IMG/VR virus record: IMGVR_UViG_2778261031_000007
Coordinates: 1-34,551 of that record
Source of the DNA: a virus
Lineage: Duplodnaviria; Heunggongvirae; Uroviricota; Caudoviricetes
DNA length: 34,551 bases
Strand: one strand, 5' to 3'
The translations under genes and the position numbers were made by a program. Below the pieces are notes generated by a model, which saw only the letters and a program-made list of their open reading frames with translations, had not been told where the DNA came from and searched no databases. This document shows positions 4,710 to 34,551 of this stretch, one piece after another. Every line of letters begins with the position of its first letter. Position 1 is the first letter of the stretch.

Positions 4710-5099
4710 ATGATTGACGCTCATGACTTCACAAGATGGGTGCGCACACAGGACACCCGTCTGGCTCCCGTTCTTCAGGGATTATTTGATCTCTACATCC
4801 GTGGTCGTGACAACAGAGCACGCACCACAAAACCGGAGAATGCAGACACCCTTTATTTCACAGTAGACGACTGCTACCGCGTGGACTTCACACCACACGG
4901 GCTGGCGTTGCACTGCCTGACACCACACGGAGAATCACTGCTGGCGTATTACGACTCCCCGGCCTCCGTATTTGCGGCAATGCTGGCGCATCGCACTGCT
5001 GGCGGGTGTGCCTCGCTGAGTGAATACACCGCTGAATTTAACCGCCTTTCTGCCCTCTTCTCGCAGGAGTGGCAGCGCGTGACGGGATACCAGCCATGA
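4710..5099 (+). CDS. Hypothetical protein (129 aa)
   Basis: ATG 4710; stop overlaps start of A (ATGA at 5096-5099). Confidence 0.5.
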   Translation: MIDAHDFTRWVRTQDTRLAPVLQGLFDLYIRGRDNRARTTKPENADTLYFTVDDCYRVDFTPHGLALHCLTPHGESLLAYYDSPASVFAAMLAHRTAGGCASLSEYTAEFNRLSALFSQEWQRVTGYQP

Positions 5100-8971: not shown

Positions 8972-8975
8972 ACCA

Positions 8976-9287
8976 ATGACGACTCCAACCAGACGGATAA
9001 GTTTCTATCTGAAGCCCGCCGCCGTCAAGAACGAAGGCGAAGCATGCGCCTGGCTGGACAGCCTTACACCAGAAGCCCGCAAAAGCGGCCAACGCGTAGC
9101 TTTTCTGGCCGGGCTGGCACTTCTGAAAATGAATCCAGCAGAGGCTTACCGACTGGCTGCATGGGCTGACGATGAGGCGTTATCAGTGACACAAACCAGG
9201 ACAGAGCGCCCCTTGTCACAGCCAGTACCAACCGCACAGATAACCAGTCAGATGGCTGGGAATATCCGGGCGTTGTTTCCTGAATAA
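8976..9287 (+). CDS. ParR-like small DNA-binding adaptor (call by position and size)
   Basis: 103 aa starting 5 nt after parM stop with AAGGAG RBS; same size class and arrangement as ParR. Confidence 0.45.
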   Translation: MTTPTRRISFYLKPAAVKNEGEACAWLDSLTPEARKSGQRVAFLAGLALLKMNPAEAYRLAAWADDEALSVTQTRTERPLSQPVPTAQITSQMAGNIRALFPE

Positions 9288-9293
9288 CACAAC

Positions 9294-9315
9294 ATCAGGG
9301 CGAGTTCGCCCTGAT
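9294..9315. terminator. Hairpin between convergent genes (ATCAGGGCGA-GTTC-TCGCCCTGAT)
   Basis: Near-perfect palindrome between parR-like stop and the convergent 198-aa gene stop. Confidence 0.45.
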
Positions 9316-9332
9316 GCACAAAGCATGCTAAA

Positions 9333-12394: not shown

Positions 12395-14145
12395 CAGAAC
12401 TCCATAACCGTGAAACGCTCGTTTTCTCCTTCGCCGCCAATCGGTTCGTTAATGACAGCAAGCATGGTTGCCCACGCAAGGTCGCCGTGGCTGATCCCCC
12501 TCGCGCGGTCCGTTTCGTAAGTGATAAAGCCGCCCGGTGTTTTCACCTTACGCACGGCGTTAAAGGCTGCGACCAGCTCGCGTTCGGCGCGATCGTATTC
12601 CCACCGCCCGGCGCGCATTATTTGCAGCATTTTCAGTACCAGCGACCGTTTTGATGACAGCGTGAAGGTGTACGGAATAGCAGCAGGGAAAAACCGTTTC
12701 ACTATCTGATAAACAGCCTCCCCGTTCCCGCCCGTCACATCAATGCCGATGTGTTCCACGTTGTAGCGATACGTGAACTCTTCAATGACTCTGGCCTGTT
12801 CTTCAAACTCCAGCCCCTGAACGCGTCGCGTCTCCACCGTTCGAAAACGGCCACCAGGAACAGCCGGAGGAGCCACCACAGACACAGCGCCGCTGTCGCC
12901 GTTGCCACTGCTGCCGTTTGCGTCATACCCAATCCATACCGGACGATTTCCCATCGGGCGGGGAGCAAAAGGTTTCCAGTCTTTCCAGTCGTCGTATCCG
13001 TCAACGCCGCAGCCAATCAGGATGTTCAGGTTAAATGCCGATTCCCCTTCGCGGACAAACTCACACATGTAGAGATTGAGGAACTCGTCTTCGGTGTTTT
13101 CATCACGGATTTCGTCAATATCGGTGTGTTTCCAGCCGTGATTAACCACATCTTCCAGCGTGACAATCTGCCGCCACGTCCGGTCAGGGCAGATAAGCCC
13201 GTTATGCAGCGTTTTCCAGTCCACAGAAAAACGCTGGCGTTTATGCGTGGCCTTTTTCTCGTTCCAGCGGTCGCCGTTCCAGTAGGCGTATGCCTCGTGC
13301 GTTTCGGTGGATGGCGTGGAGAAGTAGGTGCGCCGCAGTCCGCTGAGGGTTGCCATAGCGCCAGCCACCTTGCGCAGTTCAGCAAAGCGACTGACCCAGA
13401 AAAATTCATCAAAATAAAAATTGCCCGTATAGGACTGTGCCGACGCAGCAGAAGTGCCGAGAAAATGCAGCTCTGCGCCGTTGGAGAGGATGATTTTATC
13501 ACCCCCTTTCAGCTCCACATCAACTTCAGCCGCGGCCTTCTGAATAATGCTTTTAAACTGGAACGCCTGACGACGCGACGCAGACAAAAAAATCTGGTTA
13601 CGCTGGTAAGGTTGCGCCACATCGTCACGCAGCGCCATCAGCAGTGCTTCCTGTGCAAAATACCAGGTCGCCCCAATCTGTCGGGATTTCAGGATCATCC
13701 TGTTACGTATCCCGGCTTCCCTGCAAAGGGTCAGGGAGTCAAACCAGCCTTGCTGATGCCACTCCAGCCTGCTGATGATTTTTTCCCGCAGTGCGGCAAT
13801 CTGTTCCGGCGTGAAATGATTTTTGAGTTTTTTCGCCCGGCCTTTCTTTCCTGCGGCCATCACATCCGGCTGGCCATCATGCAGCTTTTTAAGCTGCCGG
13901 GTCAGCAGGTCTATTTCCTTAAAGTCACCGCCTGTTTTATTCTGTTTTTCAGTAAGCTGGATGAGGCGCGCATCAATGGACTGCGTGACACGCTGCACGG
14001 GTGGCGTTTCATCCCACTGGTCGCGTTTTTTCCACGCATAAATCGTGTTCGGGTTTATTCCCATCAGACGTGATATTTCTGCGGGCGGATAACCCTGCCA
14101 GTAAAGTTGCCGCGCACGCTGGCGCACAAAAGCGTCCTGAATCAT
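12394..14145 (-). CDS. P: Terminase large (ATPase) subunit (gpP)
   Basis: 583 aa, immediately upstream of portal and overlapping its start, as in P2. Confidence 0.93.
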   Translation of the reverse strand: MIQDAFVRQRARQLYWQGYPPAEISRLMGINPNTIYAWKKRDQWDETPPVQRVTQSIDARLIQLTEKQNKTGGDFKEIDLLTRQLKKLHDGQPDVMAAGKKGRAKKLKNHFTPEQIAALREKIISRLEWHQQGWFDSLTLCREAGIRNRMILKSRQIGATWYFAQEALLMALRDDVAQPYQRNQIFLSASRRQAFQFKSIIQKAAAEVDVELKGGDKIILSNGAELHFLGTSAASAQSYTGNFYFDEFFWVSRFAELRKVAGAMATLSGLRRTYFSTPSTETHEAYAYWNGDRWNEKKATHKRQRFSVDWKTLHNGLICPDRTWRQIVTLEDVVNHGWKHTDIDEIRDENTEDEFLNLYMCEFVREGESAFNLNILIGCGVDGYDDWKDWKPFAPRPMGNRPVWIGYDANGSSGNGDSGAVSVVAPPAVPGGRFRTVETRRVQGLEFEEQARVIEEFTYRYNVEHIGIDVTGGNGEAVYQIVKRFFPAAIPYTFTLSSKRSLVLKMLQIMRAGRWEYDRAERELVAAFNAVRKVKTPGGFITYETDRARGISHGDLAWATMLAVINEPIGGEGENERFTVMEF

Positions 14146-14299
14146 TGCTCCCCCTGAGTAATTACAGGAAGATTACCCGCGCGCGAAACCGTTCTCCTTA
14201 ACCCCCTGTTCTGGCCGTTTTCTTACAACAAAAGCCCTTTGTATCAGCCTGTTACGCTTTGCCATCATGACTGAAGAACCAGTCAGAGGGGCAAAAACT

Positions 14300-22556: not shown

Positions 22557-24575
22557 ATGAGTACCACAACACGAAAATTTAAAACCGTTATCACCGATAC
22601 GGGTGCAAAAAAATTAGCGCAGGCAGCCGCGCCAGATGGTAAGCCTGTCCGCCTGACTCATATGGCCGTGGGCGACGGTGGCGGTACATTGCCCACACCT
22701 GACAGTAAGCAGACCCGTCTGGTGCATGAGGTGTGGCGACATACTGTTAATCGCGTCATCCTGGACGCAACACATCAGAACCGCATTATTGCAGAGCTGG
22801 TTATTCCTCCTGAAACGGGCGGATTCTGGATCCGGGAAATTGGTGTATTTGATGAGCACGGCGATTTAATCGCGGTGGGCAATACTGCCGAAAGTTACAA
22901 GCCAGCCGTTGCCGAAGGGTCCGGTCGTGCACAAACATTTCGCACCATTCTGACCGTATCCAGCACAGCCACCGTGGCGCTTACCGTGGATAACACCATG
23001 GTGATGGCCACAGTGGATTACGTGGATGACAAACTGAAAGAGCATGAACAGTCACGACGTCACCCGGACGCCTCGCTGACCGCAAAAGGCTTTGTTCAAC
23101 TCAGTAGCGCCACCAACAGCACGTCTGAAACGCAGGCTGCAACGCCGAAAGCAGTAAAGGCCGCGTATGACCTTGCTAACGCAAAATATACCGCTCAGGA
23201 CGCCACGACGGCACAAAAAGGGATAGTCCAGCTCAGTAGTGCCACCAACAGCACGTCTGAAACACTGGCCGCGACATCGAAAGCGGTTAAGGCGGTAATG
23301 GATGAAACGAACAAGAAAGCGCCCTTAAACAGTCCTGCGCTGACCGGAACGCCAACAACGCCAACTGCGCGACAGGGAACGAATAATACCCAAATCGCAA
23401 GCACGGCTTTCGTTATGGCTGCGATTGCCGCCCTTGTAGATTCGTCACCTGACGCACTGAATACGCTGAACGAGTTAGCGGCGGCGCTGGGAAACGACCC
23501 GAATTTTGCGACCACCATGACTAACGCGCTTGCGGGTAAGCAACCGAAAGATGCCACCCTGACGGCGCTGGCCGGGCTTGCTACTGCGGCAGACAGGTTT
23601 CCGTATTTTACGGGGAATGATGTCGCCAGCCTGGCAACCCTGACAAAAGTCGGGCGGGATATTCTTGCGAAATCGACCGTTGCTGCCGTTATCGAATACC
23701 TCGGTTTACAGGAAACGGTAAACAGGGCTGGTAACGCCGTGCAAAAAAATGGCGATACCTTGTCCGGTGGGCTTACTTTTGAAAATGACTCAATCCTTGC
23801 CTGGATTCGAAATACTGACTGGGCGAAGATTGGATTTAAAAATGATGCTGATGGTGACACTGATTCATACATGTGGTTTGAAACAGGCGACAACGGCAAT
23901 GAATATTTCAAATGGAGAAGCCGCCAGAGCACCACAACAAAAGACCTGATGACGCTGAAATGGGATGCACTAAATATTCTGGTAAATGCCGTCATTAATG
24001 GCAGTCTTGGAGTTGGTACGACGAATGCGTTAGGTGGTAGCTCTATTGTTCTTGGTGATAATGACACCGGATTCAAACAGAATGGTGATGGTATTCTGGA
24101 TGTTTACGCTAATAGTCAGCGAGTATTCCGCTTTCAGAATGGAGTTGCTATTGCTTTTAAAAACATTCAGGCAGGTGATAGTAAAAAGTTCTCGTTATCC
24201 AGCTCCAACACCTCCACAAAGAATGCAACGTTTAATTTATGGGGTGTTTCAACCCGTCCAGTAGTTGCAGAGTTAGGCGATGAGGCAGGATGGCATTTCT
24301 ATAGCCAGCGAAATACAGATAACTCGGTAATATTTTCTGTTAACGGTCAGATACAGCCCAGCAACTGGGGGAATTTTGATTCACGCTATGTAAAAGATGT
24401 TCGCCTGGGTACGCGTGTTGTTCAATTGATGGCGCGTGGTGGTCGTTATGAAAAAGCCGGACACGCAATTACCGGATTAAGAATCATTGGTGAAGTAGAT
24501 GGCGATGATGAAGCCATCTTCAGACCAATACAAAAATACATCAATGGCACATGGTATAACGTCGCACAGGTGTAA
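22557..24575 (+). CDS. H: Tail fibre protein H (constant N-terminus, invertible C-terminal domain, current orientation)
   Basis: 672 aa; SSATNSTSET..A-T-(P/S)KAVKA fibre repeats; crossover site at 23689-23714 lies in frame inside the gene. Confidence 0.9.
   Translation: MSTTTRKFKTVITDTGAKKLAQAAAPDGKPVRLTHMAVGDGGGTLPTPDSKQTRLVHEVWRHTVNRVILDATHQNRIIAELVIPPETGGFWIREIGVFDEHGDLIAVGNTAESYKPAVAEGSGRAQTFRTILTVSSTATVALTVDNTMVMATVDYVDDKLKEHEQSRRHPDASLTAKGFVQLSSATNSTSETQAATPKAVKAAYDLANAKYTAQDATTAQKGIVQLSSATNSTSETLAATSKAVKAVMDETNKKAPLNSPALTGTPTTPTARQGTNNTQIASTAFVMAAIAALVDSSPDALNTLNELAAALGNDPNFATTMTNALAGKQPKDATLTALAGLATAADRFPYFTGNDVASLATLTKVGRDILAKSTVAAVIEYLGLQETVNRAGNAVQKNGDTLSGGLTFENDSILAWIRNTDWAKIGFKNDADGDTDSYMWFETGDNGNEYFKWRSRQSTTTKDLMTLKWDALNILVNAVINGSLGVGTTNALGGSSIVLGDNDTGFKQNGDGILDVYANSQRVFRFQNGVAIAFKNIQAGDSKKFSLSSSNTSTKNATFNLWGVSTRPVVAELGDEAGWHFYSQRNTDNSVIFSVNGQIQPSNWGNFDSRYVKDVRLGTRVVQLMARGGRYEKAGHAITGLRIIGEVDGDDEAIFRPIQKYINGTWYNVAQV
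23689..23714. repeat. gix/hix-like 26-bp invertase crossover site (left)
   Basis: TTATCGAATACCTCGGTTTACAGGAA; imperfect dyad; inverted copy at 26367-26392. Confidence 0.8.
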
Positions 24576-24578
24576 ATT

Positions 24579-25106
24579 ATGCAGCATTTAAAAAATATTA
24601 AGTCCGGAAATCCAAAAACAAAAGAACAATATCAGCTAACAAAGAATTTTGATGTTATCTGGTTATGGTCCGAAGACGGTAAAAACTGGTATGAGGAAGT
24701 AAATAACTTTCAGGACGACACCATAAAGATTGTATACGACGAAAATAATATTATTGTTGCCATAACCAAAGATGCCTCAACGCTTAATCCCGAAGGCTTT
24801 AGTGTCGTTGAGATTCCAGATATAACAGCCAATCGTCGTGCCGATGATTCAGGGAAGTGGATGTTTAAGGACGGAACTGTGGTTAAGCGGATTTATACAG
24901 CAGACGAACAGCAACAACAGGCCGAATCACAAAAGGTCGCGTTGCTTTCTGAAGCTGAAAGCGTTATTCAGCCACTGGAACGCGCTGTCAGGCTGAATAT
25001 GGCGACGGATGAGGAACGCACACGACTGGAGTCATGGGAACGCTACAGCGTTCTGGTCAGCCGTGTGGATACAGCAAATCCCGAATGGCCACAAAAGCCT
25101 GAGTAA
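24579..25106 (+). CDS. G: Tail fibre assembly chaperone G
   Basis: 175 aa, immediately after H. Confidence 0.85.
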
Positions 25107-25111
25107 AAATT

Positions 25112-25131
25112 AAGGCCCAATATCGGGCCTT
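25112..25131. terminator. Hairpin between convergent G and G' (AGGCCC-AATATC-GGGCCT)
   Basis: 6-bp GC stem between the two stop codons. Confidence 0.45.
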
Positions 25132-25134
25132 CTC

Positions 25135-25668
25135 TCATTCTGGTTGTTCGGGAAACGTTACTGGCAGGCTGGAGGTGTCTGTAGATTCGACTTTCTGCGC
25201 ATAGAGCATCCACTCGGTTAATTTTTGTTTATTCTCGTCGGAAATGATGCCCAGCCGTAGCTGTGAGTCCCATAGCTGGGTTTTATCCCTGACAAGTTGC
25301 AACAGGCTTTGCTTTTCATTTTCCGCTTGTTGCCTCTGCTCTTCCTCGGTATAAGTTCGCTTTATCACTACGCCATCTTTGAACAACCATTTCCCCGAAA
25401 TATCAGCCCGGCGATTTGCTGTAATATCAGGTAATTCAACGACGCTTGCGCCTTCCGGATTAATTGCTGAAACATCCTTTTCAATACAAATAATAACGCC
25501 GTTATGGTCATAGACCATTTTCAAAGTGTCTGGCTGGAAATTCTTTTGTTCCTCATACCAGTTTTTTCCATCATCTGAATAAAGCCATTTGATGTTAAAT
25601 TGCTTTGTTAGCTGGTATTGCTCTTTTGTTTTAGGGTTGCCAGCAGTAATGTTTTTTAAGTGCATCAT
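25135..25668 (-). CDS. Alternative tail fibre assembly chaperone G'
   Basis: 177 aa, paralogous to G ([22 protein letters not shown] versus [22 protein letters not shown]), inverted. Confidence 0.85.
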   Translation of the reverse strand: MMHLKNITAGNPKTKEQYQLTKQFNIKWLYSDDGKNWYEEQKNFQPDTLKMVYDHNGVIICIEKDVSAINPEGASVVELPDITANRRADISGKWLFKDGVVIKRTYTEEEQRQQAENEKQSLLQLVRDKTQLWDSQLRLGIISDENKQKLTEWMLYAQKVESTDTSSLPVTFPEQPE

Positions 25669-25670
25669 CG

Positions 25671-26381
25671 TTAAATACTCCCCGCGTTATACCACGTCCC
25701 ATTAATGCAATACTGAATTGGCCTTGCCTGTGTTGTATCAATTAATTCATCACGGTTTCCGTTAACTGAACCCGTAACGACATAACCTGACCTGTCAGAC
25801 CAGCCGGGACCATTCCATGTCTGAACAGATGACAGACCGCCAAGGCGAATACCTGTAATAAACCTTGAGTTACATTCTGCCCGCGTATATGCACCAACAT
25901 CTCCCGCTGAAGGTTTTCGTGTCGTGGTATAGAAATCTGACCAACCTAATTCAAACCCATAACCATCACGAGCCGACCTGTAGGAAATGCCACCATTTTT
26001 ATAATTCACACGGAATTGTACGGCAGGACAGCTACCAGCATTTATATTAAAGTGAAGAATTAATGCAGATGCACCACCAATCAGGGCGTTATATGCACCA
26101 CTATCCCAATTCCATCCAACGGATGTATCACCATTAACAGTATTACCTGTTTGTCGGAGTGCAAATGCATTGACATTTTTGGCACTAATTGAAATATCGC
26201 TAGAACCATCAAAACCAACTCCAGCAATTTTTCGTGCTGTTTTCAGCTTTGTTGCAGTAGCGGCATTGCCGGACAGTTCCCCAGAAAGGCCACCGCTGAA
26301 TGTTTGTCGATTGGTCCAGGTATTCGCTGTACTGAGTAACGGTATTTTCTCCCCGCTTGTGCCGAGTTCTCGTAAACCGAG
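25671..26381 (-). CDS. Silent alternative tail-fibre C-terminal cassette H'v (no own start; in frame with the crossover site)
   Basis: Hand translation from the crossover codon at 26381 is open for 236 codons to stop at 25671-25673; the track shows only the internal GTG-initiated part 25671-26009. Confidence 0.75.
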   Translation of the reverse strand, partial: LGLRELGTSGEKIPLLSTANTWTNRQTFSGGLSGELSGNAATATKLKTARKIAGVGFDGSSDISISAKNVNAFALRQTGNTVNGDTSVGWNWDSGAYNALIGGASALILHFNINAGSCPAVQFRVNYKNGGISYRSARDGYGFELGWSDFYTTTRKPSAGDVGAYTRAECNSRFITGIRLGGLSSVQTWNGPGWSDRSGYVVTGSVNGNRDELIDTTQARPIQYCINGTWYNAGSI

Positions 26382-26392
26382 GTTTTAAATAA
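26367..26392. repeat. gix/hix-like 26-bp invertase crossover site (right, inverted)
   Basis: TTCTCGTAAACCGAGGTTTTAAATAA; reverse complement matches the left site at 21 of 26 positions including the core ACCTCGGTTTAC. Confidence 0.8.
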
Positions 26393-26446
26393 TGGCCGTT
26401 TCTGGCCTGCATGGCATGATTTGCGCTTTTGGACGGGAGATTCAGT

Positions 26447-27046
26447 GTGCTGATTGGCTATGTAAGGGTATCAACAAATGACCAGAATACAGACCTGCAA
26501 CGAAACGCTCTTGTTTGTGCAGGATGTGAACAAATATTTGAAGATAAATTAAGCGGGACAAAGACAGACCGACCGGGATTAAAACGCGCTTTAAAGCGCC
26601 TTCAAAAAGGTGACACGCTGGTTGTCTGGAAACTGGATCGCCTCGGGCGAAGCATGAAACATCTGATTTCTCTCGTCGGGGAACTACGGGAGCGAGGGAT
26701 TAATTTTCGCAGTCTGACCGACAGCATAGACACATCTTCTCCAATGGGGCGTTTTTTCTTCCACGTGATGGGTGCCCTGGCTGAAATGGAACGTGAATTA
26801 ATTGTTGAACGTACACTGGCCGGGCTGGCGGCAGCGCGCGCAAGGGGGCGCACAGGCGGACGTCGACCGAAGCTGACAAAAGAACAGCATGAGCAAATAG
26901 CAAGGCTAATCAAAAACGGGCACGACAGAAAACAACTGGCAATAATTTACGGCATTGGCACATCGACGATTTATCGTTATCACCCTGTAGGCGATATACA
27001 GACTGAAGAAACAACCGGGCAGACTCAGGAAAATGAAAACCGCTAA
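26447..27046 (+). CDS. Serine DNA invertase (Gin/Pin/Cin/Hin family)
   Basis: From GTG 26447 (GGGAGA RBS): LIGYVRVSTNDQNTDLQRNAL N-terminus and GRSMKHLISLVGELRERGINFRSLTDSIDTSSPMGRFFFHVMGALAEMEREL core near-identical to recalled Gin/Pin. Confidence 0.9.
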   Translation: MLIGYVRVSTNDQNTDLQRNALVCAGCEQIFEDKLSGTKTDRPGLKRALKRLQKGDTLVVWKLDRLGRSMKHLISLVGELRERGINFRSLTDSIDTSSPMGRFFFHVMGALAEMERELIVERTLAGLAAARARGRTGGRRPKLTKEQHEQIARLIKNGHDRKQLAIIYGIGTSTIYRYHPVGDIQTEETTGQTQENENR

Positions 27047-27066
27047 TCTGACCATTAGCGGTTTTT
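27036..27066. terminator. Bidirectional terminator shared by invertase and the U-T operon
   Basis: AAAACCGCTAAT-CTGACC-ATTAGCGGTTTT, 12-bp stem flanked by A and T runs. Confidence 0.65.
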
Positions 27067-27074
27067 GTGTAAAA

Positions 27075-27569
27075 TCAGAACAGCCCTTTAACTGAACTGG
27101 CCGCGCTGTTAAGAGATGATGTCACCTTATCTTTGAAGCCGGACAGCATATCACTGAACGATGAGGATTGCAGGCGCTCCCGCAAATCCTCATCACAGCG
27201 TTCAAGGGTCAGTGAAAATTCTATCTTTTTCGCCTTACCGTAGCGATCAAACTCGGAACGGGTCGTATTCGTTTCAGTCAGCACATACATGCCGTAAATC
27301 TGCCCGACGCCATCAATCAGAGGCCAGGGTCGTCCTGTATACGCCTGCGTGGTCAGCAGCGACAGCGATACTTCGCCACCTGTAATTTCAGGATAAAGCA
27401 CACCAGAAAGAACGATGCGATCATCTCCTGCACCGATATACTGCCAGCTTGCTGAACGGTTAACGCGTTCATTTTTCACATGCCGCCAGCTTTTGTTTTG
27501 CTGTAACTGCTGATGCGGCAGCGTGCGCAGCTCAAAAACAAACATGCCGTAGATCATCATCATGGCCAT
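27075..27569 (-). CDS. U: Tail protein U
   Basis: 164 aa; FVFELRTLPHQQLQ and VLSGVLYPEITGG match recalled P2 gpU. Confidence 0.9.
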   Translation of the reverse strand: MAMMMIYGMFVFELRTLPHQQLQQNKSWRHVKNERVNRSASWQYIGAGDDRIVLSGVLYPEITGGEVSLSLLTTQAYTGRPWPLIDGVGQIYGMYVLTETNTTRSEFDRYGKAKKIEFSLTLERCDEDLRERLQSSSFSDMLSGFKDKVTSSLNSAASSVKGLF

Positions 27570-27575
27570 GACTCC

Positions 27576-30392
27576 TCAATCTTTATCGTAAAAACTGCCA
27601 CGCCCGGCACGGGCGCGCCGTTCCATTTCTGCCCTGACCATTTCACCTACCAGTTTCGCAAGTTCGCGGGGATTCTGCGTAACAACGTTATGCAGATGAA
27701 CATGAATTTCACCGCCAAATCCGGAGGCAACCGGCTCCCGATTACGGGAAGCTGCAGGAACTGATGCCACTGGCGATCGTATGGCCTCCGCCACCGGGCG
27801 GGAGCTGGCCGCAACAACAGGGACCAGCGCCGGAGGCAGCGGAGCCGGGACCACGGGTGTGATATTAATTGCGGGGGCAGGCTTACTGACCTGCGCAATC
27901 TTCCGCTCCTGCCACTCCCCACGAACGGCAAGTGCGCGGGGCAGGTTCTTAAAGACAATATCGCCGGGGCCAATGCGTTTTTTCGTCTCATCAACCAGCT
28001 TACCTGTGTTATCAGCAATTTTGCTGAGTCTGCGCAGCGTACCGGTATTGCTGTCTGTGAGCGGTTTATTGTCTTTGGGGTTATCACCTCCGGTACCATT
28101 GCCATTTTCCACAGGCTTCGGCGGATTGATTTTCGCCAGGTCCCCCTGAAGCAAGGCAACCTTGTCCTGAAGAATGGCCGCACGCTGTGCGTCTTCGATT
28201 TTCTTGCGCGCCCTTTCCGCTTCATCCGGAAGGACGCCAAGTTTTTCAAGTATCCACGCCAGCGTATCCAGCAGCATTTTTGCAGGTGTCAGAACAAGCT
28301 GTAACGCACCGCCAAGAACGTTACCGAATATCTCGCCAGCACTGGTACATTTATCCAGCGTTTCCTTGCTGGACTCCATCGGTGACAGCAGCGATTTAAA
28401 CCAGTTAAACACCTGGCTGATCCCGCTCCCGATTGCGTCAAAAACAGGACCAAACCGTTCAAAAGTTTCGCGCAACGGGGTCAGCCTTTCCATAATCCCG
28501 CTGAACACCCCGGCAAAAAATGCCCTGATGGGATCCCAGTATTTCCAGATAAGAACGGCAGCTCCGGCAAGCGCAGCCACGATAAGACCAACCGGACTGA
28601 ACAACGCCCCGATAGCGCCTCCCAGCAAAGAAACGGACCCCGTCACCATTCCCCATAGTGCTGGCAGGACCCTGACAGCATTCATTGATCCGGTCAGGAG
28701 AGAAAAACCAAGACGCAGTTTTGCCAGCGGACCAGCAAGCACACCAATAGCCAGCGACAACGAGCCAACCGTTGCAGTCATTGCCAGCAACGCACCGCCT
28801 GCTATCAGTAGCTGGCGCGTCAGTGCCGGATGGGCCTGCGCCAGCGCCGTCACCCTTGATACCACCCGCGTGAGCCACTGCGTGACAGAACGCAGCGGAC
28901 CGTCAATCAGATCTGCAATGCGGATGCGCAACCCTTCCCATGCACTGCCGAGTGATTTCAGATCGCCGTCAAGGTTGTTGGCCATAACCTTTGCTGTGCG
29001 TTCAGCCTCACCGCGCGCGCCTTCAAGTTCTTTTCTCAGTTTGGGTAAGGAACCGTCACCCGCTGCATCAACGAGCGCCATAAACGATGTGAAAGCCTCT
29101 TCTCCGGCAATGTCCTTAAAGAACGATACCCGGTCAACTTCCCCGTATTTGCGGGTGGCTTTATAAAGGTCGGCCAGCACATCCTCCATCGGGCGCATTT
29201 TGCCCCCGGCATCCGAGACGGACACGCCCAGCTCTTTCAGAGCTTCTGCCGCCGCCTTTGGCGGTGATGCCAGACGAGCCAGGCTGGCACGCATTGCCGT
29301 CCCGGCATCACTCCCTCTGATGCCCATATTCGCCAGCACGCCAGCCATCGCTGCGGCCTGCTCCAGCGATATTCCCAGCTTCCCCGCCACCGGACCTGCA
29401 TATTTCATGGTTTCGCCCAGTGCGCGAAGGTCAGTGTTGGTACGGGTAAACGCTGCGGTGAGTGTGTCACCGACCCGGTCCATCTGGTCAGCAGAAAGGC
29501 CGAACTGCGTCAGGATATTTGAGCCAATATCTGCCGTCTCGCCGAGATCCATACCGCCAGCCGTTGCCATGCTCAGCACGCCGGGAAGCGCAGCCTGAAT
29601 GGCCTGCGGAGTGAAGCCAGCCATTGCAAGAAATGCCTGTCCACTGGCGGCATCGCCTGCGGTGAACTGCGTTTCAGAGCCAAGTTTTAACGCCTGCTCA
29701 CGCAGCGCCTTAAACTGCGGGCTGTTCTGGTCGATTCGCGTCAGTGCCTGAACGCGGGACATCTCTTTGCCGAACCCGATCGCAGGCTGCAAAAAACGCC
29801 CGGCAGCATAGCCGCCCGCCGCTGCCGCACCAATTGCCAGCGCACCACCTGTTTTCAGTTTTCCCGCTGTTTCCTGCGCGCGCGAATACCGCTCACGCGC
29901 CCGCGTTACACGCGCAAGCGCCTGCCGTTCGCGTTCAAGCTGGTTGTTGTACTGTTCGGTGCGTCTGATGGCCTGCTGGATGGTGTTATCGCTGCCTGTC
30001 AGGGAAATGCCGTGGCGTTTCAGCTCTCCGCCAAGTTCCCGCATTTTCTGAATTTCCCGTGTGCGCGATTCATTCAGGCGTTCAAGCCGGGTGCTTAACT
30101 GCTGCATCAGCTTTTGTTGTTTTTCGCTGAGCACTGTACCCGTGCGTTGTAACTGATTAAGGGCGTTAAGCTGGCGTCGTGCTTTCAATATGCCAGCATC
30201 CGCTTTACTGACAGCGTCACGGGCGCGCTCAAATGAACGCGCCTGACGCTCGAGATTTTTGATCGCCCCCTGCGTTCGCTGGATGGAGTCACCAAGCTGC
30301 CCCATCAGGCGGCGGGCGTTTTCGGCAGGCCGGGTCAACCTGTCAACGGCGCTGAAAGCGACCCGGATATCAAGAGTCTTCATTATCTGCAT
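27576..30392 (-). CDS. T: Tail tape measure protein T
   Basis: 938 aa, Ala/Gly-rich with coiled-coil N-terminus; sits between E/E' and U. Confidence 0.9.
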   Translation of the reverse strand: MQIMKTLDIRVAFSAVDRLTRPAENARRLMGQLGDSIQRTQGAIKNLERQARSFERARDAVSKADAGILKARRQLNALNQLQRTGTVLSEKQQKLMQQLSTRLERLNESRTREIQKMRELGGELKRHGISLTGSDNTIQQAIRRTEQYNNQLERERQALARVTRARERYSRAQETAGKLKTGGALAIGAAAAGGYAAGRFLQPAIGFGKEMSRVQALTRIDQNSPQFKALREQALKLGSETQFTAGDAASGQAFLAMAGFTPQAIQAALPGVLSMATAGGMDLGETADIGSNILTQFGLSADQMDRVGDTLTAAFTRTNTDLRALGETMKYAGPVAGKLGISLEQAAAMAGVLANMGIRGSDAGTAMRASLARLASPPKAAAEALKELGVSVSDAGGKMRPMEDVLADLYKATRKYGEVDRVSFFKDIAGEEAFTSFMALVDAAGDGSLPKLRKELEGARGEAERTAKVMANNLDGDLKSLGSAWEGLRIRIADLIDGPLRSVTQWLTRVVSRVTALAQAHPALTRQLLIAGGALLAMTATVGSLSLAIGVLAGPLAKLRLGFSLLTGSMNAVRVLPALWGMVTGSVSLLGGAIGALFSPVGLIVAALAGAAVLIWKYWDPIRAFFAGVFSGIMERLTPLRETFERFGPVFDAIGSGISQVFNWFKSLLSPMESSKETLDKCTSAGEIFGNVLGGALQLVLTPAKMLLDTLAWILEKLGVLPDEAERARKKIEDAQRAAILQDKVALLQGDLAKINPPKPVENGNGTGGDNPKDNKPLTDSNTGTLRRLSKIADNTGKLVDETKKRIGPGDIVFKNLPRALAVRGEWQERKIAQVSKPAPAINITPVVPAPLPPALVPVVAASSRPVAEAIRSPVASVPAASRNREPVASGFGGEIHVHLHNVVTQNPRELAKLVGEMVRAEMERRARAGRGSFYDKD

Positions 30393-30606
30393 TCCCGCTG
30401 CGAAGTGCCGCCCGCTCGCGCCAGCTAACCACTTCGCCGGGCGTCATCATGAAGATTTCGGCGGGCGACCAGTTAAAAATGGCGGCAATATCCGCCACCA
30501 GATCTTCGATGTGCTCAAAGCACACCAGGGTGATTACGCTGCCGTCTCCTGCACGCTCTTCGCGCCAGAGTCTGGCTCGCTCATAAAATTTACAGCCACA
30601 GCGCAC
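30370..30606 (-). CDS. E' frameshift extension (expressed as E+E' fusion by -1 frameshift)
   Basis: ORF in the -1 frame overlapping the 3' part of E; candidate slippery sites A_AAT_TTT (30585-30591) and an A7 tract (30632-30638). Confidence 0.55.
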   Translation of the reverse strand: MRCGCKFYERARLWREERAGDGSVITLVCFEHIEDLVADIAAIFNWSPAEIFMMTPGEVVSWRERAALRSGNADNEDS

Positions 30607-30899
30607 AACTGAATAAAATCGCGTGACGACATTTTTTTAATCATCACTTCATCCAGTCGCGGTGATGTCACGCGTGACAGCAGCGTAAACATGGATTCCG
30701 CTTTCAGATTCAGCACATCAGACAGCGACAGACCACGCAGGGATCCAGCCTGCTCAATAGCCCCGGTGATCTCCACATACGTGATTTTTTCGCCGCCTCG
30801 CTCAATTGGTTGGGTAAGTTTTACGCCACGCTCACTGGTTTCTTTCACAGTGTCAGTAACTACCGTGTTTTCGGTATCGATGTTTTTCGTCTCTTTCAT
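30534..30899 (-). CDS. E: Tail assembly chaperone E
   Basis: 121 aa between FII and T; AGGAG RBS 7 nt upstream. Confidence 0.8.
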   Translation of the reverse strand: MKETKNIDTENTVVTDTVKETSERGVKLTQPIERGGEKITYVEITGAIEQAGSLRGLSLSDVLNLKAESMFTLLSRVTSPRLDEVMIKKMSSRDFIQLCAVAVNFMSEPDSGAKSVQETAA

Positions 30900-30953
30900 C
30901 AGGAAACTCCTTTCAGTCAGAGGCGACGCACTGCGCCGCCTGCATATTACTTA

Positions 30954-31466
30954 TCAGCTAAGCCCGAGCGCGGAACGGATGCGATCGGGCACAATGTCCT
31001 TGCCGTCCTTCCGGTAAATGAAGTTCAGCAGGTCAATCTCCCACAACGGGCGATCGTTAACACTCAGCTTGTAGTAGGTGTTTTTAATGGCGTAAGTGTG
31101 TGATGTGGCTTCGCCCTGTTTGGCTTCCCCCATATCAATTTCCGTCACACGTCCGCGCATTTCGACTTCATACAGGTCGCTTTCTGCATCGGTGTAGTAT
31201 TCACCCGCAAAACGCAGCAGCGTGCCGTCAATCGTGCCGCCATACTTAAGGAACAGCTCACGAACTGCGCCCCCCATGACAAAGCTCGCATCAAGCGCGG
31301 AGTCATCCAGGCCGAGATCAATACTTACCGCTCCCATCATGCCACCACCCCGGTAGCTGTCGGTTTTGCGCGTCAGCTTAGGCAAAGTGACGGACGTCAC
31401 CTTACCCACTTCGTTTTCACCATCCACAAACAGCGTAAAAAAGCGAAGATGTTTTGGCACAGCCAT
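30954..31466 (-). CDS. FII: Tail tube protein FII
   Basis: 170 aa; LPKLTRK..YRGGGM..LGLDD motifs match recalled P2 gpFII. Confidence 0.9.
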   Translation of the reverse strand: MAVPKHLRFFTLFVDGENEVGKVTSVTLPKLTRKTDSYRGGGMMGAVSIDLGLDDSALDASFVMGGAVRELFLKYGGTIDGTLLRFAGEYYTDAESDLYEVEMRGRVTEIDMGEAKQGEATSHTYAIKNTYYKLSVNDRPLWEIDLLNFIYRKDGKDIVPDRIRSALGLS

Positions 31467-32650
31467 CAGGCACCTCCCAGCACCGCAAATGCGGGTTCAA
31501 AGTATTCATCAGTAAACGTCTGGTAAAGCTCCATGTCTTCCAGTGGCGGAACGGGCGTATATTTGTAGCGAATACGCACACGCCCCTGACGTAAATCCGT
31601 GGTGCTGTTATCCACCACGTCATACCAGCACTCCGCGCCAATCAGTTTCCCGGCAGTCACCAGTGAATCCAGTTTTGCCCTGATGGCACTGATAACATCC
31701 TTCACGTTCGCAGGCGTCAGTGGACTGTCGATGGTTTCAAACTGCGCTTCCGCAATTGAATCAGCCAGCACCTGTGCGGTTCGGGTATACACCTCAAAAA
31801 TGTAGGCGTTCGTTTCCGGTGTGCGGTTGCCCCAGAAGCGGAACCCGTTGCGACGAATAATGGTCGTGATTTCTTTGTTGTTGAGGCTGTTGGCATCGCT
31901 GTCTTCGGCCTGCAACGACCAGAACACATGCCTCGACATCCCCAGCACATTTTTAACCGGAACGTTGGACAGCGATTTGTGCCAGCCCTGCTCATGGTCA
32001 ATGTACGCACGAAGGCCGCACGCATAAGCAGGCGCGGGGAACGTTTCGTTTTCGCCACTTTTCGGGTTGTAGGCGATGAAGTCCGGCCATAAGAGCATCA
32101 CTTCACGTTCGTTGAATTTCTGGCGGTAGGTAATCGCTTCAGCCATCGTGTTACAGCCGTGACATGAGGCATACACAAATGCGCGCAGTTTACCCGCAAT
32201 CACGCACAGGGATTTTGTCACCGCCTCCGTGTCCAGCTCCGGCGCGGCCAGAATACGCGGACGGTATCCGATGCTTTCATCCTGCTCTGCAACAAGCAGC
32301 GCATACATCCCCGTATAGCTGCCGTCATCCTCAGAACCACCGATAACCAGTTGATCCTGCGTCTTTTCGTCTTCTTCTTTGTGTTCAGCCACGCGAACGA
32401 CGATCACCTTTGTGCTCACCTGGTCTGCGATGGCCTTAAGCGCACGATAAAGCGTCCCCGTTGTTCCGCATTTTCCCAGCACGTCATTGACGCGGGTCAG
32501 CAGTGTGGGCTTGTTCAGCGGGAACAGCTTCGCGTCCGCATCATCCGCCGTTGCCACGATACCGATAACGCTGGAATCAACATCGTTAATCGCTGTTACC
32601 AGGTCGGTATTTTCCGTAACACGGGCACCATGAAAACGAGTTTCACTCAT
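31466..32650 (-). CDS. FI: Tail sheath protein FI
   Basis: 394 aa; FPLNKP, KLRAFVYAS, EQGWHK, IRRNGFRFWGNRT, YTPVPPLE motifs match recalled P2 gpFI. Confidence 0.95.
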   Translation of the reverse strand: MSETRFHGARVTENTDLVTAINDVDSSVIGIVATADDADAKLFPLNKPTLLTRVNDVLGKCGTTGTLYRALKAIADQVSTKVIVVRVAEHKEEDEKTQDQLVIGGSEDDGSYTGMYALLVAEQDESIGYRPRILAAPELDTEAVTKSLCVIAGKLRAFVYASCHGCNTMAEAITYRQKFNEREVMLLWPDFIAYNPKSGENETFPAPAYACGLRAYIDHEQGWHKSLSNVPVKNVLGMSRHVFWSLQAEDSDANSLNNKEITTIIRRNGFRFWGNRTPETNAYIFEVYTRTAQVLADSIAEAQFETIDSPLTPANVKDVISAIRAKLDSLVTAGKLIGAECWYDVVDNSTTDLRQGRVRIRYKYTPVPPLEDMELYQTFTDEYFEPAFAVLGGA

Positions 32651-32807
32651 AGCTTCAGCCCCTTGTATCCGTTAAATGATTCGGCAACAATCATCACCCA
32701 CCACGCGCGTAATCTCACCCCTGCGCCGTTCTCCCGCCACGGCGACAACAAAAAGCAGTAACCCCCTCCGCACGCACATGCGACCATGCCACACAGGGAG
32801 GGAGCAG

Positions 32808-33917
32808 ATGACCGACACCACCATGCAATTGCTCAGTCAGGGCACAGACCCCGTGAAAATGCCGGATTTTGATATTCTCGCCGAGGGTAAAACGCTGTCC
32901 GGCGTGGCAGAACGCCTGATGAGCCTGTCACTGACCGACAACCGGGGATTTGAGGCGGACCAGCTCACCATCACGCTGGATGATGCCGATGGCCAGTTGC
33001 AGCTACCGCCACGGGGCGCGCGTCTGACGGTTCTCATTGGCTGGAAAGGGGAACCGCTGACAGAAAAAGGCACTTACATTGTTGATGAAATCGCTCACGA
33101 AGGACCGCCGGACAGGCTGACTGTTTCAGCCAGAAGCGCAGATTTTCGGGATGAATTTAACGTTAAACGTGAGGTGTCCTGGCATGATGTGACCGTTGAG
33201 CGTGTGGTATCCGCCATCGCTCATCGGTATGGTCTGAAACCGCAAATCAGCGAAATGCTGATGGATATCGAAATCGACCACGCCGACCAGACCGAAGAAA
33301 GCGACATGTCCTTCCTTACGCGCATGGCGGAAATGCTGGGCGCAATCACCACGGTAAAAAGCGGTAATCTGTTATTCATCATGCCCGGTGGTGGCGTGAA
33401 CGCACAGGGCCAGCCGTTGCCCTCGTTCGCCATCACACGCAACAGCGGCGATCGCCATCAGTTCCGCATTGCTGACCGCGAAGCGTATACGGGGGTACGC
33501 GCTTACTGGCTTGATCTTAATTACGGGAAAAAGAAAAAAGTCAGCGTGAAACGCCGCAAACCGTCAAAACCAAAAAAGGAGAAAAGCAGCAGCCGGGAAG
33601 GCGACTATATGGAAGGTGCGGAAGGCAACGTGTTTGTGTTACGCAAGACTTATCAGAACGAGCAGGCAGCAAGACGCGCAGCGGCGGCAAAGTGGCAGCA
33701 GCTACAACGCGGAGCTGCATCATTCTCCATCACGCTGGCGCGTGGACGCGCAGAACTCTATCCCGAAATGCATGGCACGGTAACAGGATTTAAAAGCGAG
33801 ATTGATAATCAGGACTGGATTATTGCAAAAGCCGAGCACACCATTGATAACAGCGGCTTTACCACGCAGCTTGAGCTTGAGGCAAAAATCCCGGAATGGA
33901 TAGCGGAAACAGAGTGA
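32808..33917 (+). CDS. D: Tail protein D (late control D)
   Basis: 369 aa from ATG 32808 (AGGGAGGGAG RBS); position before ogr; track ORF begins at an upstream alternative start. Confidence 0.85.
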   Translation: MTDTTMQLLSQGTDPVKMPDFDILAEGKTLSGVAERLMSLSLTDNRGFEADQLTITLDDADGQLQLPPRGARLTVLIGWKGEPLTEKGTYIVDEIAHEGPPDRLTVSARSADFRDEFNVKREVSWHDVTVERVVSAIAHRYGLKPQISEMLMDIEIDHADQTEESDMSFLTRMAEMLGAITTVKSGNLLFIMPGGGVNAQGQPLPSFAITRNSGDRHQFRIADREAYTGVRAYWLDLNYGKKKKVSVKRRKPSKPKKEKSSSREGDYMEGAEGNVFVLRKTYQNEQAARRAAAAKWQQLQRGAASFSITLARGRAELYPEMHGTVTGFKSEIDNQDWIIAKAEHTIDNSGFTTQLELEAKIPEWIAETE

Positions 33918-33959
33918 AGAACTTAGAATAGCGGCAGCACCACGTTAAGGGAGGTCGCT

Positions 33960-34220
33960 ATGTTCCGTTGTCCGCTTTGTGGCGCATCTGCCCGTATCCG
34001 CACCAGTCGTCCGGAAAATGATTCAAACACCGTGCGGCAAAAGTATTACCAGTGTAACAACCTGGAATGCGGCGTATGCTTCTCAACACTGGAAGCCTTC
34101 CATAAATTCACATCGAAACACGCCTCCGGCGTTCACTCATCAGAAGGTATCCCGTGGCATGAGCTGCCAGCTTCACACAGGGGAAACAATCAGATGAGTT
34201 TGCCTTTACCTCAGAATTAA
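33960..34220 (+). CDS. ogr: Ogr-type zinc-finger late-gene activator
   Basis: MFRCPLCG...CNNLEC four-Cys pattern like recalled P2 Ogr; AAGGGAGG RBS. Confidence 0.85.
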   Translation: MFRCPLCGASARIRTSRPENDSNTVRQKYYQCNNLECGVCFSTLEAFHKFTSKHASGVHSSEGIPWHELPASHRGNNQMSLPLPQN

Positions 34221-34410
34221 CAGGCAGAATTGCCGGAGTAACAAAAAAGCGATAGATTACGCGCGGGTGCCTTTCGGCTGATGGTCGGAGGGAATACCCG
34301 AAGGCCAGATGTGGAAAGGCCCCGGAAAACACTTTTGTTTAACCGAGGCCCTAACCGTCTACCCTAAGCAAGTGAAAGGTTAGCGCCTCTCCGGAAAAGG
34401 AGCAAGTGCT

Positions 34411-34551
34411 ATGTCGCAAAAATCGCTTACAGCCATCACGTTCTGCGTGACGGTAATCCTCATCATCTGGATATTGCATGGTTCGCTGTGCGAAATACGG
34501 ATGAGCTTCTGGGGCGCGGAGTTTGCGGCGTTCTTACAGTGTAAGCAGTAA
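34411..34551 (+). CDS. hok: Hok/Gef-family type I toxin (46 aa)
   Basis: MSQKSLTAITFCVTVILIIWILHGSLCEIRMSFWGAEFAAFLQCKQ: N-terminal TM helix then SLCEIR and E-x-AAF as in Hok/HokA; AAGGAG RBS; window ends at its stop codon. Confidence 0.75.
   Translation: MSQKSLTAITFCVTVILIIWILHGSLCEIRMSFWGAEFAAFLQCKQ

Follow-up and report, generated by a model that had tools for sequence, protein, structure and literature searches.

Late gene order in P2 and in a P88-like prophage

In the annotated P2 reference genome (NC_001895), the late genes V-W-J-I-H-G, the tail genes FI-FII-E-T-U-D and ogr all lie on the same strand, an orientation that the original prediction had stated correctly. The late activator site has the consensus TGT-N12-ACA (PMC3931495). 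The P2 promoters PP and PO form a mapped pair around one annotated activator site, with hexamers at +/-44 and transcription starts at +/-55.5; at pF, where the site lies 82.5 nt from the FI ATG, a hexamer is present on the FI side alone. Closer to the locus studied here are P88, obtained by induction of its lysogenic host E. coli K88 (PMC5285337), and PhiSM, which forms plaques and lysogenizes K-12 (PMC6456863).

The stretch of DNA analysed here (34,551 nt at full length, hereafter the window) is a P88-like (Xuanwuvirus) prophage of the P2 family. By ICTV convention, membership of a genus calls for a nucleotide similarity (identity x coverage) of at least about 70% over the genome to a member. 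On that measure the overall similarity of the window to Xuanwuvirus is ~0.8, with positions 1-24000 covered to 81% by P88 at 96.2% identity, and the window shares the Xuanwuvirus trait of an inverted FI-U block with a divergent FI/D spacer.

Both the layout of open reading frames and the Pfam identities uphold the earlier reading that FI to U are on the minus strand with D and ogr on the plus strand. H (22557-24575) and G (24579-25106), placed by ORF layout, and a serine DNA invertase of the Gin/Cin/Pin type (26447-27046; PF00239 (resolvase), PF02796) are plus-strand genes, the last of them convergent with U. The minus-strand block (27075-32650) then runs from its last gene, encoding the tail protein gpU (27075-27569; PF06995), through the tape measure gpT (27576-30392; PF10145), the tail assembly chaperone gpE in the 0 frame (30534-30899), and the tail tube gpFII (30954-31466; PF04985) to its first gene, encoding the tail sheath gpFI (31466-32650; PF04984, PF17482). 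Divergent from FI and in the ancestral orientation are the baseplate hub gene D (32808-33917, plus strand; PF05954 (GPD)) and, 3' of it, a zinc-finger late activator gene of the Ogr/Delta family (33960-34220, plus strand; PF04606 (Ogr_Delta)). The sheath, tube, tape measure, gpU and gpD of P2 families all score above the Pfam curated cut-offs. As the Pfam search of the block proteins returned no match for gpE, its identity rests on its position, on annotations in P88 and NU14, and on an E' reading frame (30370-30606, minus strand) that is -1 relative to E, overlaps the start of T and is annotated as GpE-family in both relatives; a candidate A7 slippery run for E/E' lies at ~30631-30638. The window proteins are 46% (FI) and 42% (Ogr, with four Cys conserved) identical to those of P2.

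The inverted unit is thus the FI-FII-E/E'-T-U part of the P2 F operon, turned as a single ~5.6-kb block; the one-operon synteny of P2, with FI-FII-E-T-U-D co-oriented with V-W-J-I-H-G, is broken, FI-U having changed strand and D being cut off from it. What differs is the order of the genes; family membership is unaffected. The D start at 32808 matches the annotated starts in P88, Chuche and SEN4 (a longer ORF from 32676 was rejected, its 5' extension showing no conservation), and given that start the FI-D spacer is 157 bp (32651-32807), as first proposed.

A fixed gene order marking a branch of Peduoviridae

The inverted order is a fixed, functional gene order common to a whole P2-like branch. 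It is present in the induced or plaque-forming phages P88, PhiSM, Chuche and SEN4. The part of the window spanning 24000-34551 is 97.3% identical over 100% of its length to Xuanwuvirus P884B11, 97% identical over 100% to Citrobacter phage Shae_phiSM, and 95.9% identical to P88 with 94% covered. In 339 complete E. coli genomes the same 10.5 kb is present as a single collinear piece. Among 5426 complete E. coli genomes scanned, the FI/D junction is intact in 1358 of the 1380 that have it, which by this junction count gives ~25% of complete E. coli genomes (1358/5426) with the inverted order; the gin/U junction is intact in 621. All 80 relatives examined in IMG/VR read ogr- D-, FI+ FII+ T+ U+, I- J-. 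The synteny comparison with related prophages that the original prediction had called for therefore finds the same inverted order throughout this clade, and its suggestion of an old fixed rearrangement is strongly supported by viable phages, relatives and complete genomes alike.

Across species, the orientation follows sheath identity. In ~85 loci from different species, those with a sheath at least 54% identical to that of the window are all inverted and those at 52% or below are all canonical. A one-genome-per-species survey, which sampled the best 80 genome loci, gave 41 loci with FI at least 54% identical and with both FI and D found, every one of them inverted; one extra survey locus in the same FI range (L099), the D start of which could not be assigned, is also inverted. 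SEN4 and Kp4848-1 carry the inverted order, and phiE202 and P2 the canonical one; Burkholderia phages of the phiE202 type, considered as carriers of an inverted tail cluster, are thereby removed as candidates, their annotation showing canonical order. In each of the 44 GenBank phage records whose FI is at least 55% identical, D adjoins FI but lies on the other strand.

Neighbour-joining (NJ) trees of FI and of D, both unrooted, each split cleanly into inverted and canonical sequences in 30 of 30 bootstraps, with the inverted branch monophyletic within Peduoviridae. This branch comprises Xuanwuvirus, Novemvirus, Reipivirus, Reginaelenavirus and Senquatrovirus together with prophages of at least 20 genera in the Enterobacterales. 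The trees being unrooted, we take the canonical order as ancestral because the phages that have it span a much broader range of hosts and have diverged more deeply; identity of D goes down to 30% within the canonical set vs at least 56% within the inverted set. These patterns point to one old inversion marking a branch of Peduoviridae, as drawn from the best 80 genome loci, with separate inversions possible elsewhere.

The FI/D spacer and the ends of the late units

Across the clade the FI-D spacer is mostly 150-167 bp long. That of the window contains an Ogr/Delta-type activator dyad, TCT-N12-ACA, then ACAAAAAG (32730-32747; centre 32738.5), the centre of which is separated from the ATG codons of FI and D by 88.5 and 69.5 nt, respectively. 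It has one mismatch to TGT-N12-ACA, the left half-site being TCT in the window and in many relatives. Two -10-like hexamers mirror one another around it, each starting 43.5 nt from the dyad centre: GATGAT (32690-32695, minus strand), belonging to the predicted FI-ward promoter PF, and GACCAT (32782-32787, plus strand), belonging to the predicted D-ward promoter PD. The two marks of a bidirectional promoter, a single dyad between divergent late genes (here TCT-N12-ACA) and symmetric -10-like elements ~44 nt from its centre, are thus both found in the window.

A T(G/C)T-N12-A(C/G)A dyad lies 80-88 nt from the FI ATG in 41 of 44 inverted sequences (43 loci and the window). Exactly 44 nt from the dyad centre, an A2/T6 -10-like hexamer is present on the FI side in all 41 loci and on the D side in 38 of the 41, the frequency of such hexamers being no higher than 0.22 at all other offsets; the 41 aligned spacers are homologous and thus do not amount to 41 independent observations. 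The predicted D leader would be only ~13 nt long, beginning at the Shine-Dalgarno sequence, and a generic promoter scan of the FI/D spacer found nothing. Judged by sequence, the conserved mirror-symmetric architecture around one Ogr-type site lends support to the deduction made at the outset that D must have its own promoter: D probably has a mirror promoter, PD, that shares the activator site of PF.

The same type of site, TCT-N12-ACAACAAAAG, is found in the window's divergent P/O spacer (14210-14229), only 48.5 nt from the first O ATG (14267), which is too close for PP/PO geometry. An in-frame O ATG at 14300 resolves the conflict: its Shine-Dalgarno sequence is good, and it lines up with the O start of P2. 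We propose a start-site correction whereby O probably begins at 14300 rather than at 14267.

At the other end of the block, a hairpin with U-tracts on both strands (27033-27068), identified by folding and z-scores, reaches -17.1 kcal/mol on the plus strand (z = -6.2) and -15.7 kcal/mol on the minus strand (z = -5.2), and the invertase stop codon falls inside it. It is probably a bidirectional terminator at which the inverted F operon and the invertase transcript both end. A simple terminator scan of the SEN4 G/U junction found none, so that the sharing of a bidirectional terminator may not be a general feature of the clade.

Origin of the inversion

Mis-orientation of the FI-U block in this one assembly was the other explanation first offered, and it is excluded: nothing was found in its support, its sole prompt having been an order unlike that of P2, while the same order and the same junction sequences recur in hundreds of independently sequenced complete genomes and isolated phages, with the inverted order extending to relatives as far as 55% in FI identity. 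We give it next to no probability, and just as little to a programmed, reversible inversion in which the Gin-type invertase or another recombinase flips FI-U and the window has captured one of two states. An active-type serine invertase gene does adjoin the block (in E. coli NU14 it is annotated as a 600-nt CDS), and P88-like prophages have been reported to flip the tail-fibre segment reversibly (bioRxiv 10.1101/2022.05.07.487787). Yet the gix core has only two matches in the whole window (0.01 expected by chance), at 23695-23714 (plus strand) and 26367-26386 (minus strand), and these are the left and right gix-like crossover sites that bracket the tail-fibre segment. No inverted repeats bracketing the FI-U block were found at its ends, ~27.05 and 32.7 kb, a weak complementary pair (26759-26784 and 32833-32858, 77%) being no better than many chance pairs; the gix-core and repeat searches agree with the initial observation that gix-like sites and inverted repeats are absent from the block boundaries. 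The opposite orientation, which a segment of the Gin/Hin type should show among close relatives, was found in none of 80 IMG/VR loci, 43 cross-species loci or phage records and 1358 E. coli genomes carrying this clade's sheath gene. FI-U is also inverted in many relatives without gin, e.g. SEN4, Chuche and many IMG/VR loci. Since gix-like sites flank the tail-fibre segment only and many relatives lack the gene, the adjacent invertase is not the source of the FI-U inversion and has the tail-fibre segment as its sole target. No trace of recombination remains at the block ends, and the breakpoints therefore cannot be mapped to the nucleotide.

Two further alternatives accept the inverted order as real. 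A foreign contractile-tail module, from sheath to U, might have been inserted backwards between G and D, and the low identity of FI to canonical P2-like FI (only ~46-50%) and the status of the P2 G/FI junction as a known hot spot for cargo (the fun(Z) gene) would fit such a replacement. We consider it quite improbable, however, because D, which lies outside the block, shows the same clean clade split and a divergence similar to that of FI, so that block and flank have co-diverged; moreover, the block matches P2 FI-FII-E/E'-T-U exactly in its genes, their order and their Pfam families, and the Ogr-type site lies at a P2-like distance from FI. Alternatively, the inversion may have left D outside Ogr activation, transcribed from a sigma-70 promoter or by some other route, with the symmetric hexamer merely inherited. 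In keeping with this, GACCAT is weak as a -10 element, no -35 is recognizable, the predicted leader is very short and the generic scan came up empty across the spacer. However, a weak -10 and a missing -35 are normal in activator-dependent P2 late promoters, the 44-nt spacing of dyad and hexamer is invariant in 38 of 41 spacers that otherwise vary in sequence and length, the geometry equals that of the mapped Ogr-dependent PP/PO pair of P2, and D is a structural late protein needed together with the tail. Such a route to D expression seems to us unlikely.

The reading that we favour, and consider likely as a whole, is a clade-wide FI-U inversion in P88-like phages that took PF along and was accompanied by a new mirror promoter, PD. 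The right breakpoint would have lain upstream of the Ogr-dependent PF and the left at the U/D boundary, and the block would therefore have carried PF along in the inversion; the Ogr-type dyad still has a P2-like distance of 80-88 nt to the FI start. D, severed from the F operon, would now be expressed from a new PD mirroring PF, which would use the single Ogr-binding dyad of PF in the opposite direction in the manner of P2 PP/PO; the predicted transcription starts are ~32683 for FI (minus strand) and ~32794 for D-ogr (plus strand). The inverted F operon would end at the 27033-27068 hairpin, shared with whatever cargo occupies the G/U junction (the invertase here). With somewhat less assurance, we lean towards the broader proposal that a unidirectional PF became a bidirectional PF/PD on one dyad, creating a fifth late unit, D-ogr, that would uncouple baseplate hub and activator from sheath and tube synthesis, and that this rewiring is the synapomorphy of a P2-like prophage lineage that ranks among the most successful in Enterobacterales.

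Significance and comparison with known systems

The inverted order defines a large group of P2-like phages that have already been sequenced. Public phage records have shown it for some ten years without comment, and we found no explicit description of the inversion in papers on P88, SEN4/5, PhiSM and Serratia PP4 or in searches on P2-like gene order (subscription-only reviews lay outside the scope). Opposite orientations of FI-U and D in a P2-like prophage should be read as a lineage marker, not as mis-assembly, and distinguish the P88/SEN4 branch at sight from canonical phages of the P2/186 type. The value of the observation is evolutionary and regulatory, and no new kind of system is involved: it amounts to a natural operon-rewiring experiment, in which inversion split a late operon and left both halves apparently under one activator site, and the fifth, mirror late promoter is an easily testable prediction.

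Compared with the P2 F operon, the window has the same genes, internal order and Pfam families, an E' that overlaps the start of T, and ogr after D. It differs in that FI-U runs counter to V-G, D and ogr, that D is detached and divergent across a 157-bp spacer, that U is the last gene of the operon and is followed by a hairpin which a convergent gene shares, and that the proteins are only ~42-50% identical. In the predicted promoter, as in P2 PF, an Ogr/Delta-type dyad precedes the FI start by ~82-88 nt, and 44-45 nt separate the dyad centre from a -10-like hexamer. The resemblance to P2 PP/PO lies in one dyad midway between divergent late genes with -10-like hexamers 44 nt to each side, a type of site that the window's own P/O spacer shares, whereas the pair predicted here would drive FI and D, a pairing absent from P2, and has TCT as its left half-site.

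The tail-fibre cassette of the window, made up of the 3' part of H, G, G', H'c and the invertase, matches those of Mu, D108, P1 and P7 at 90-94% nucleotide identity and, like the G segment/Gin of Mu and the C segment/Cin of P1, has gix-like sites. Unlike such invertible segments, FI-U is not bracketed by the cassette sites, and its inversion occurs without the cassette. The identical inverted arrangement, with a short FI/D spacer, is found in P88 and other Xuanwuvirus, Novemvirus phiT5282H, Reipivirus, Reginaelenavirus 3LV2017, Senquatrovirus SEN4 and SEN5, and Serratia phage KSP20. P88, P884B11 and PhiSM are 96-97% identical to the window over ~81-100% of its length. Within the P88 group, members differ in their tail-fibre tips, and the first ~1.8 kb of the window (integrase, 1-1023) has no match in phages of the group. 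The cargo of the G/U junction also varies, from an invertase in the window to a glycosyltransferase in Chuche and nothing in SEN4.

Gene order in the late region

From integrase to ogr, the window spans a complete P2-family prophage in which the tail genes FI, FII, E/E', T and U lie on the minus strand, opposite to H, G, D and ogr. The integrase (1–1023) is on the minus strand and a P2 A-type replication gene (5069–7906) on the plus strand; within the early/head region Q and P are on the minus and O to S on the plus strand. The baseplate and fibre genes end with H (22557–24575) and G (24579–25106), both plus, beyond which stand an inverted pair of tail-fibre tip genes, G'/H' (25135–26009, minus), and a serine invertase (26447–27046, plus; Pfam resolvase). 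The minus-strand block consists of U (27075–27569; Pfam GpU), T (27576–30392; Pfam tape measure), E' (30370–30606), E (30534–30899), FII (30954–31466; Pfam tube) and FI (31466–32650; Pfam sheath), and is followed on the plus strand by D (32808–33917; Pfam GPD) and ogr (33960–34220; Pfam Ogr_Delta), whose product is 42% identical to P2 Ogr. In the annotated P2 reference V-W-J-I-H-G, FI-FII-E-T-U-D and ogr all share one strand, with the Ogr-dependent promoter PF upstream of FI. Given this co-orientation in P2 and the Pfam identities in the window, both the inverted order described in the original prediction and its premise about P2 are confirmed.

Several other features accompany this layout. 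An A7 run (AAAAAAAT, coding strand; 30631–30638) lies inside E, ~30 codons before its stop, and is followed by the open −1 frame E' (30370–30606), which runs into the start of T; the run is a candidate E/E' frameshift site, differing from P2, where frameshifting occurs at a T6G site near the end of E. By megablast, the first 1.8 kb (1–1820, with the integrase) matched none of the Xuanwuvirus records, P88 and PhiSM included. The rest of the backbone is ~96% identical, and the integration module has apparently been exchanged. At the other end, the annotations of P88, Chuche and Escherichia coli NU14 place a hok/gef-family (MokW-like) toxin gene 3' of ogr (window ~34410–34551; 13279–13419 and 13423–13563 in loci L001 and L002), and the P88 and NU14 matches to the window end where this gene ends. 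The NU14 prophage adjoins serS.

The inverted order in independent genomes

The original prediction left two readings of the inverted order, an old fixed rearrangement or an assembly artefact. Xuanwuvirus P884B11 and Citrobacter phage Shae_phiSM each align without a break along the full length of 24000–34551, at 97.3% identity, and P88 matches this region at 95.9%; 339 complete E. coli genomes match this region in one place, and the P88 and NU14 annotations have the strand pattern of the window. Of the complete E. coli genomes, 1380 contain the FI/D junction (query 32300–33150), and 1358 of these (about a quarter of all 5426) have it intact; the invertase/U junction (query 26700–27450) is intact in 621. 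This search of both junctions is an in silico counterpart of the PCR validation originally proposed. All 80 IMG/VR contigs with an FI at least 98% identical have the order ogr and D on one strand, FI, FII, T and U on the other, and I and J again on the first. With the junctions intact in independent genomes, an assembly artefact is excluded. Phages with the inverted order are also viable, since P88 has been induced from E. coli K88 (PMC5285337) and PhiSM is released spontaneously, forms plaques and lysogenizes E. coli K-12 (PMC6456863).

Two points concern individual records. A siphovirus morphology, with a long and non-contractile tail, has been described for PhiSM (PMC6456863); this looks inconsistent with the Shae_phiSM genome (GenBank OR565851), which is 96–97% identical to the window and encodes sheath, tube and baseplate proteins of the P2 type. 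The tail-region match is broken in NC_049344 (520873) and NC_049341 (503458), with an IS100 (IS21-family) transposase and IstB annotated beneath, and the sheath matches are truncated in both; these prophage copies are probably defective.

Age and distribution of the inversion

Loci were fetched by FI alignment from a one-genome-per-species collection, and FI, FII, T, U, D, ogr, I and J were placed by tblastn. All 41 loci with FI and D placed and an FI at least 54% identical to that of the window are inverted, as is one further locus in this range (L099) whose D start could not be assigned. Their hosts are Salmonella, Citrobacter, Enterobacter, Kosakonia, Symbiopectobacterium, Mixta, Erwinia tracheiphila, Trabulsiella, Klebsiella, Raoultella, Brenneria, Pantoea coffeiphila, Pectobacterium, Yokenella, Providencia, Photorhabdus, Xenorhabdus, Morganella, Yersinia aleksiciae, Dryocola and Serratia. 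Loci with an FI at most 52% identical are all canonical, from hosts including Erwinia, Pantoea, Rahnella, Pseudomonas, Acinetobacter and Burkholderiales; the P88-type sheath itself is ~46% identical to P2 FI. GenBank phage records agree: FI adjoins D on opposite strands in 44 of 44 with an FI at least 55% identical, and the inverted records span five ICTV genera (Xuanwuvirus, Novemvirus, Reipivirus, Reginaelenavirus and Senquatrovirus). Serratia phage KSP20 is inverted; phiE202 and P2 are canonical. Thus the inverted order is clade-wide, and the comparison with relatives supports the old fixed rearrangement.

Neighbour-joining trees of FI and of D each contain a branch splitting exactly the inverted from the canonical loci (30 of 30 bootstraps). 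Within the canonical set D identity falls to 30%; within the inverted set it stays at 56% or more. The canonical set also spans more host classes, and it is therefore most simply the canonical order that is ancestral, the inversion being a single old event. A foreign tail module inserted backwards would produce the same arrangement, and at such an age it is not fully separable from an inversion. This is less likely, however, than a simple inversion, because D, which lies outside the block, has co-diverged with FI, which lies inside it.

Invertase, tail-fibre cassette and the left junction

The region 23685–27046, comprising the tail-fibre tip, assembly genes and invertase, is a Mu G/P1 C-type invertible cassette, 90–94% identical in nucleotide sequence to the invertible segments of Mu, D108, P1, P7 and D6, and evidently exchanged horizontally among unrelated phage families. 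Reversible switching between gpH and an alternative tip has been reported in P88-like prophages (bioRxiv 10.1101/2022.05.07.487787). Only two gix-like sites occur in the window (23695–23714 and 26367–26386; 0.01 expected by chance), both bordering the tail-fibre segment, and a search of the window found no inverted repeat bracketing the FI–U block; the block ends indeed lack such sequences, as first noted. The invertase is absent from many inverted relatives (Chuche, a mud isolate, has no invertase yet carries the inverted block), and among the relatives examined the block was never seen in the opposite orientation. The invertase is a bystander to the FI–U inversion.

Between the convergent invertase and U lies a hairpin (27033–27068) that includes the invertase stop codon and ends 7 nt from that of U. 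It has a folding energy of −17.1 kcal/mol on the plus and −15.7 on the minus strand, is flanked by U-runs on both sides, and was equalled in stability by none of 200 shuffles on either strand. From these energies, shuffles and U-runs, the bidirectional terminator proposed at 27036–27066 is a reasonable reading. Most E. coli genomes that match 26700–27450 without an intact junction do so over the U-side half only, from ~27064–27072, and fewer over the invertase part only; genomes matching the U side only carry other cargo at this junction. Cargo varies at the convergent G/U junction (27027–27075 in the window): there is the invertase in the window, a glycosyltransferase in Chuche and nothing in SEN4; Chuche homology begins at 27027, thus taking in the hairpin and the last invertase codons.

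A putative divergent promoter between FI and D

Going by the P88, Chuche and SEN4 annotations, the D start should be 32808, and the 157-bp FI/D intergenic region originally described therefore holds; this spacer is short across the inverted clade, mostly 150–167 bp. The longest D ORF opens within it, at 32676, and the small hypothetical ORFs annotated there in relatives clash (plus strand in P88, minus in SEN4 and Chuche). Since spacer indels are not multiples of three, 32676–32807 is very likely non-coding.

The late promoters of P2 depend on Ogr and contain a TGT-N12-ACA dyad (PMC3931495). In an alignment of 43 distinct spacers, three conserved elements stand out from otherwise variable sequence. 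Of 44 inverted sequences (the window and 43 loci), 41 have a T(G/C)T-N12-A(C/G)A dyad 80–88 nt from the start of FI, the counts here and below being of related rather than of independent sequences; for pF of P2 this distance is 82.5 nt, and in canonical relatives where the pattern could be found near FI it is 78–84 nt. Starting exactly 44 nt from the centre of the dyad, a −10-like hexamer (A at position 2, T at 6) occurs on the FI side in 41 of 41 and on the D side in 38 of 41 spacers; its frequency at any other offset between 20 and 61 is at most 0.22. In the window these elements are TCT-N12-ACA (32730–32747; one half-site imperfect), GATGAT (32690–32695, reverse complement) and GACCAT (32782–32787, plus strand).

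The same geometry occurs in P2, where one activator site (3057–3087) serves the divergent promoters PP and PO; their mapped starts lie 55.5 nt from its centre in each direction, and TAGCCT and GAAACT stand at ±44. At P2 pF, in contrast, only the FI side has a hexamer, GAAAAT at +45. Taken together, the dyad, hexamers and P2-like geometry suggest that the inverted block carried PF along and that D would be served by a mirror promoter, PD, using the same Ogr site, with predicted starts near 32683 (minus) and 32794 (plus) and a very short D leader. We have moderate confidence that D is expressed from such a promoter; it is the conserved dyad and hexamers that argue for D having a promoter of its own, as predicted.

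The window has a second copy of this site type in the P/O spacer, TCT-N12-ACAACAAAAG (14210–14229). The head scaffold gene O probably starts not at its first ATG (14267) but at an in-frame ATG (14300) that has a Shine-Dalgarno sequence (AGAGGGG) and aligns to the P2 O start; with that start, the spacer has P2-like geometry around its dyad (14210–14227). A perfect palindromic TGT-N12-ACA (TGTTTCCTGAATAACACA, 9274–9291) also stands at the end of an ORF (8841–9287), directly followed by a GC-rich hairpin (CATCAGGGCGAGTTCGCCCTGATG; region 9272–9317), and could be an Ogr-type site in the early/accessory region or a chance match.

Relationship to known P2-like phages

The window belongs to Xuanwuvirus, the P88-like genus (identity × coverage with P88 ~0.8 over the whole window). 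The inverted order has been visible in deposited annotations since ~2014–2017; papers on P88, SEN4/5, PhiSM and Serratia PP4 make no mention of inversion, orientation or rearrangement of these genes, and broader literature searches found no description of the FI–U inversion. What we add is that the inverted order is a single-origin marker of a clade spanning five genera, and that the inversion is accompanied by a conserved, apparently bidirectional Ogr-type promoter. The arrangement therefore represents a variant organization within the well-known late region of P2.
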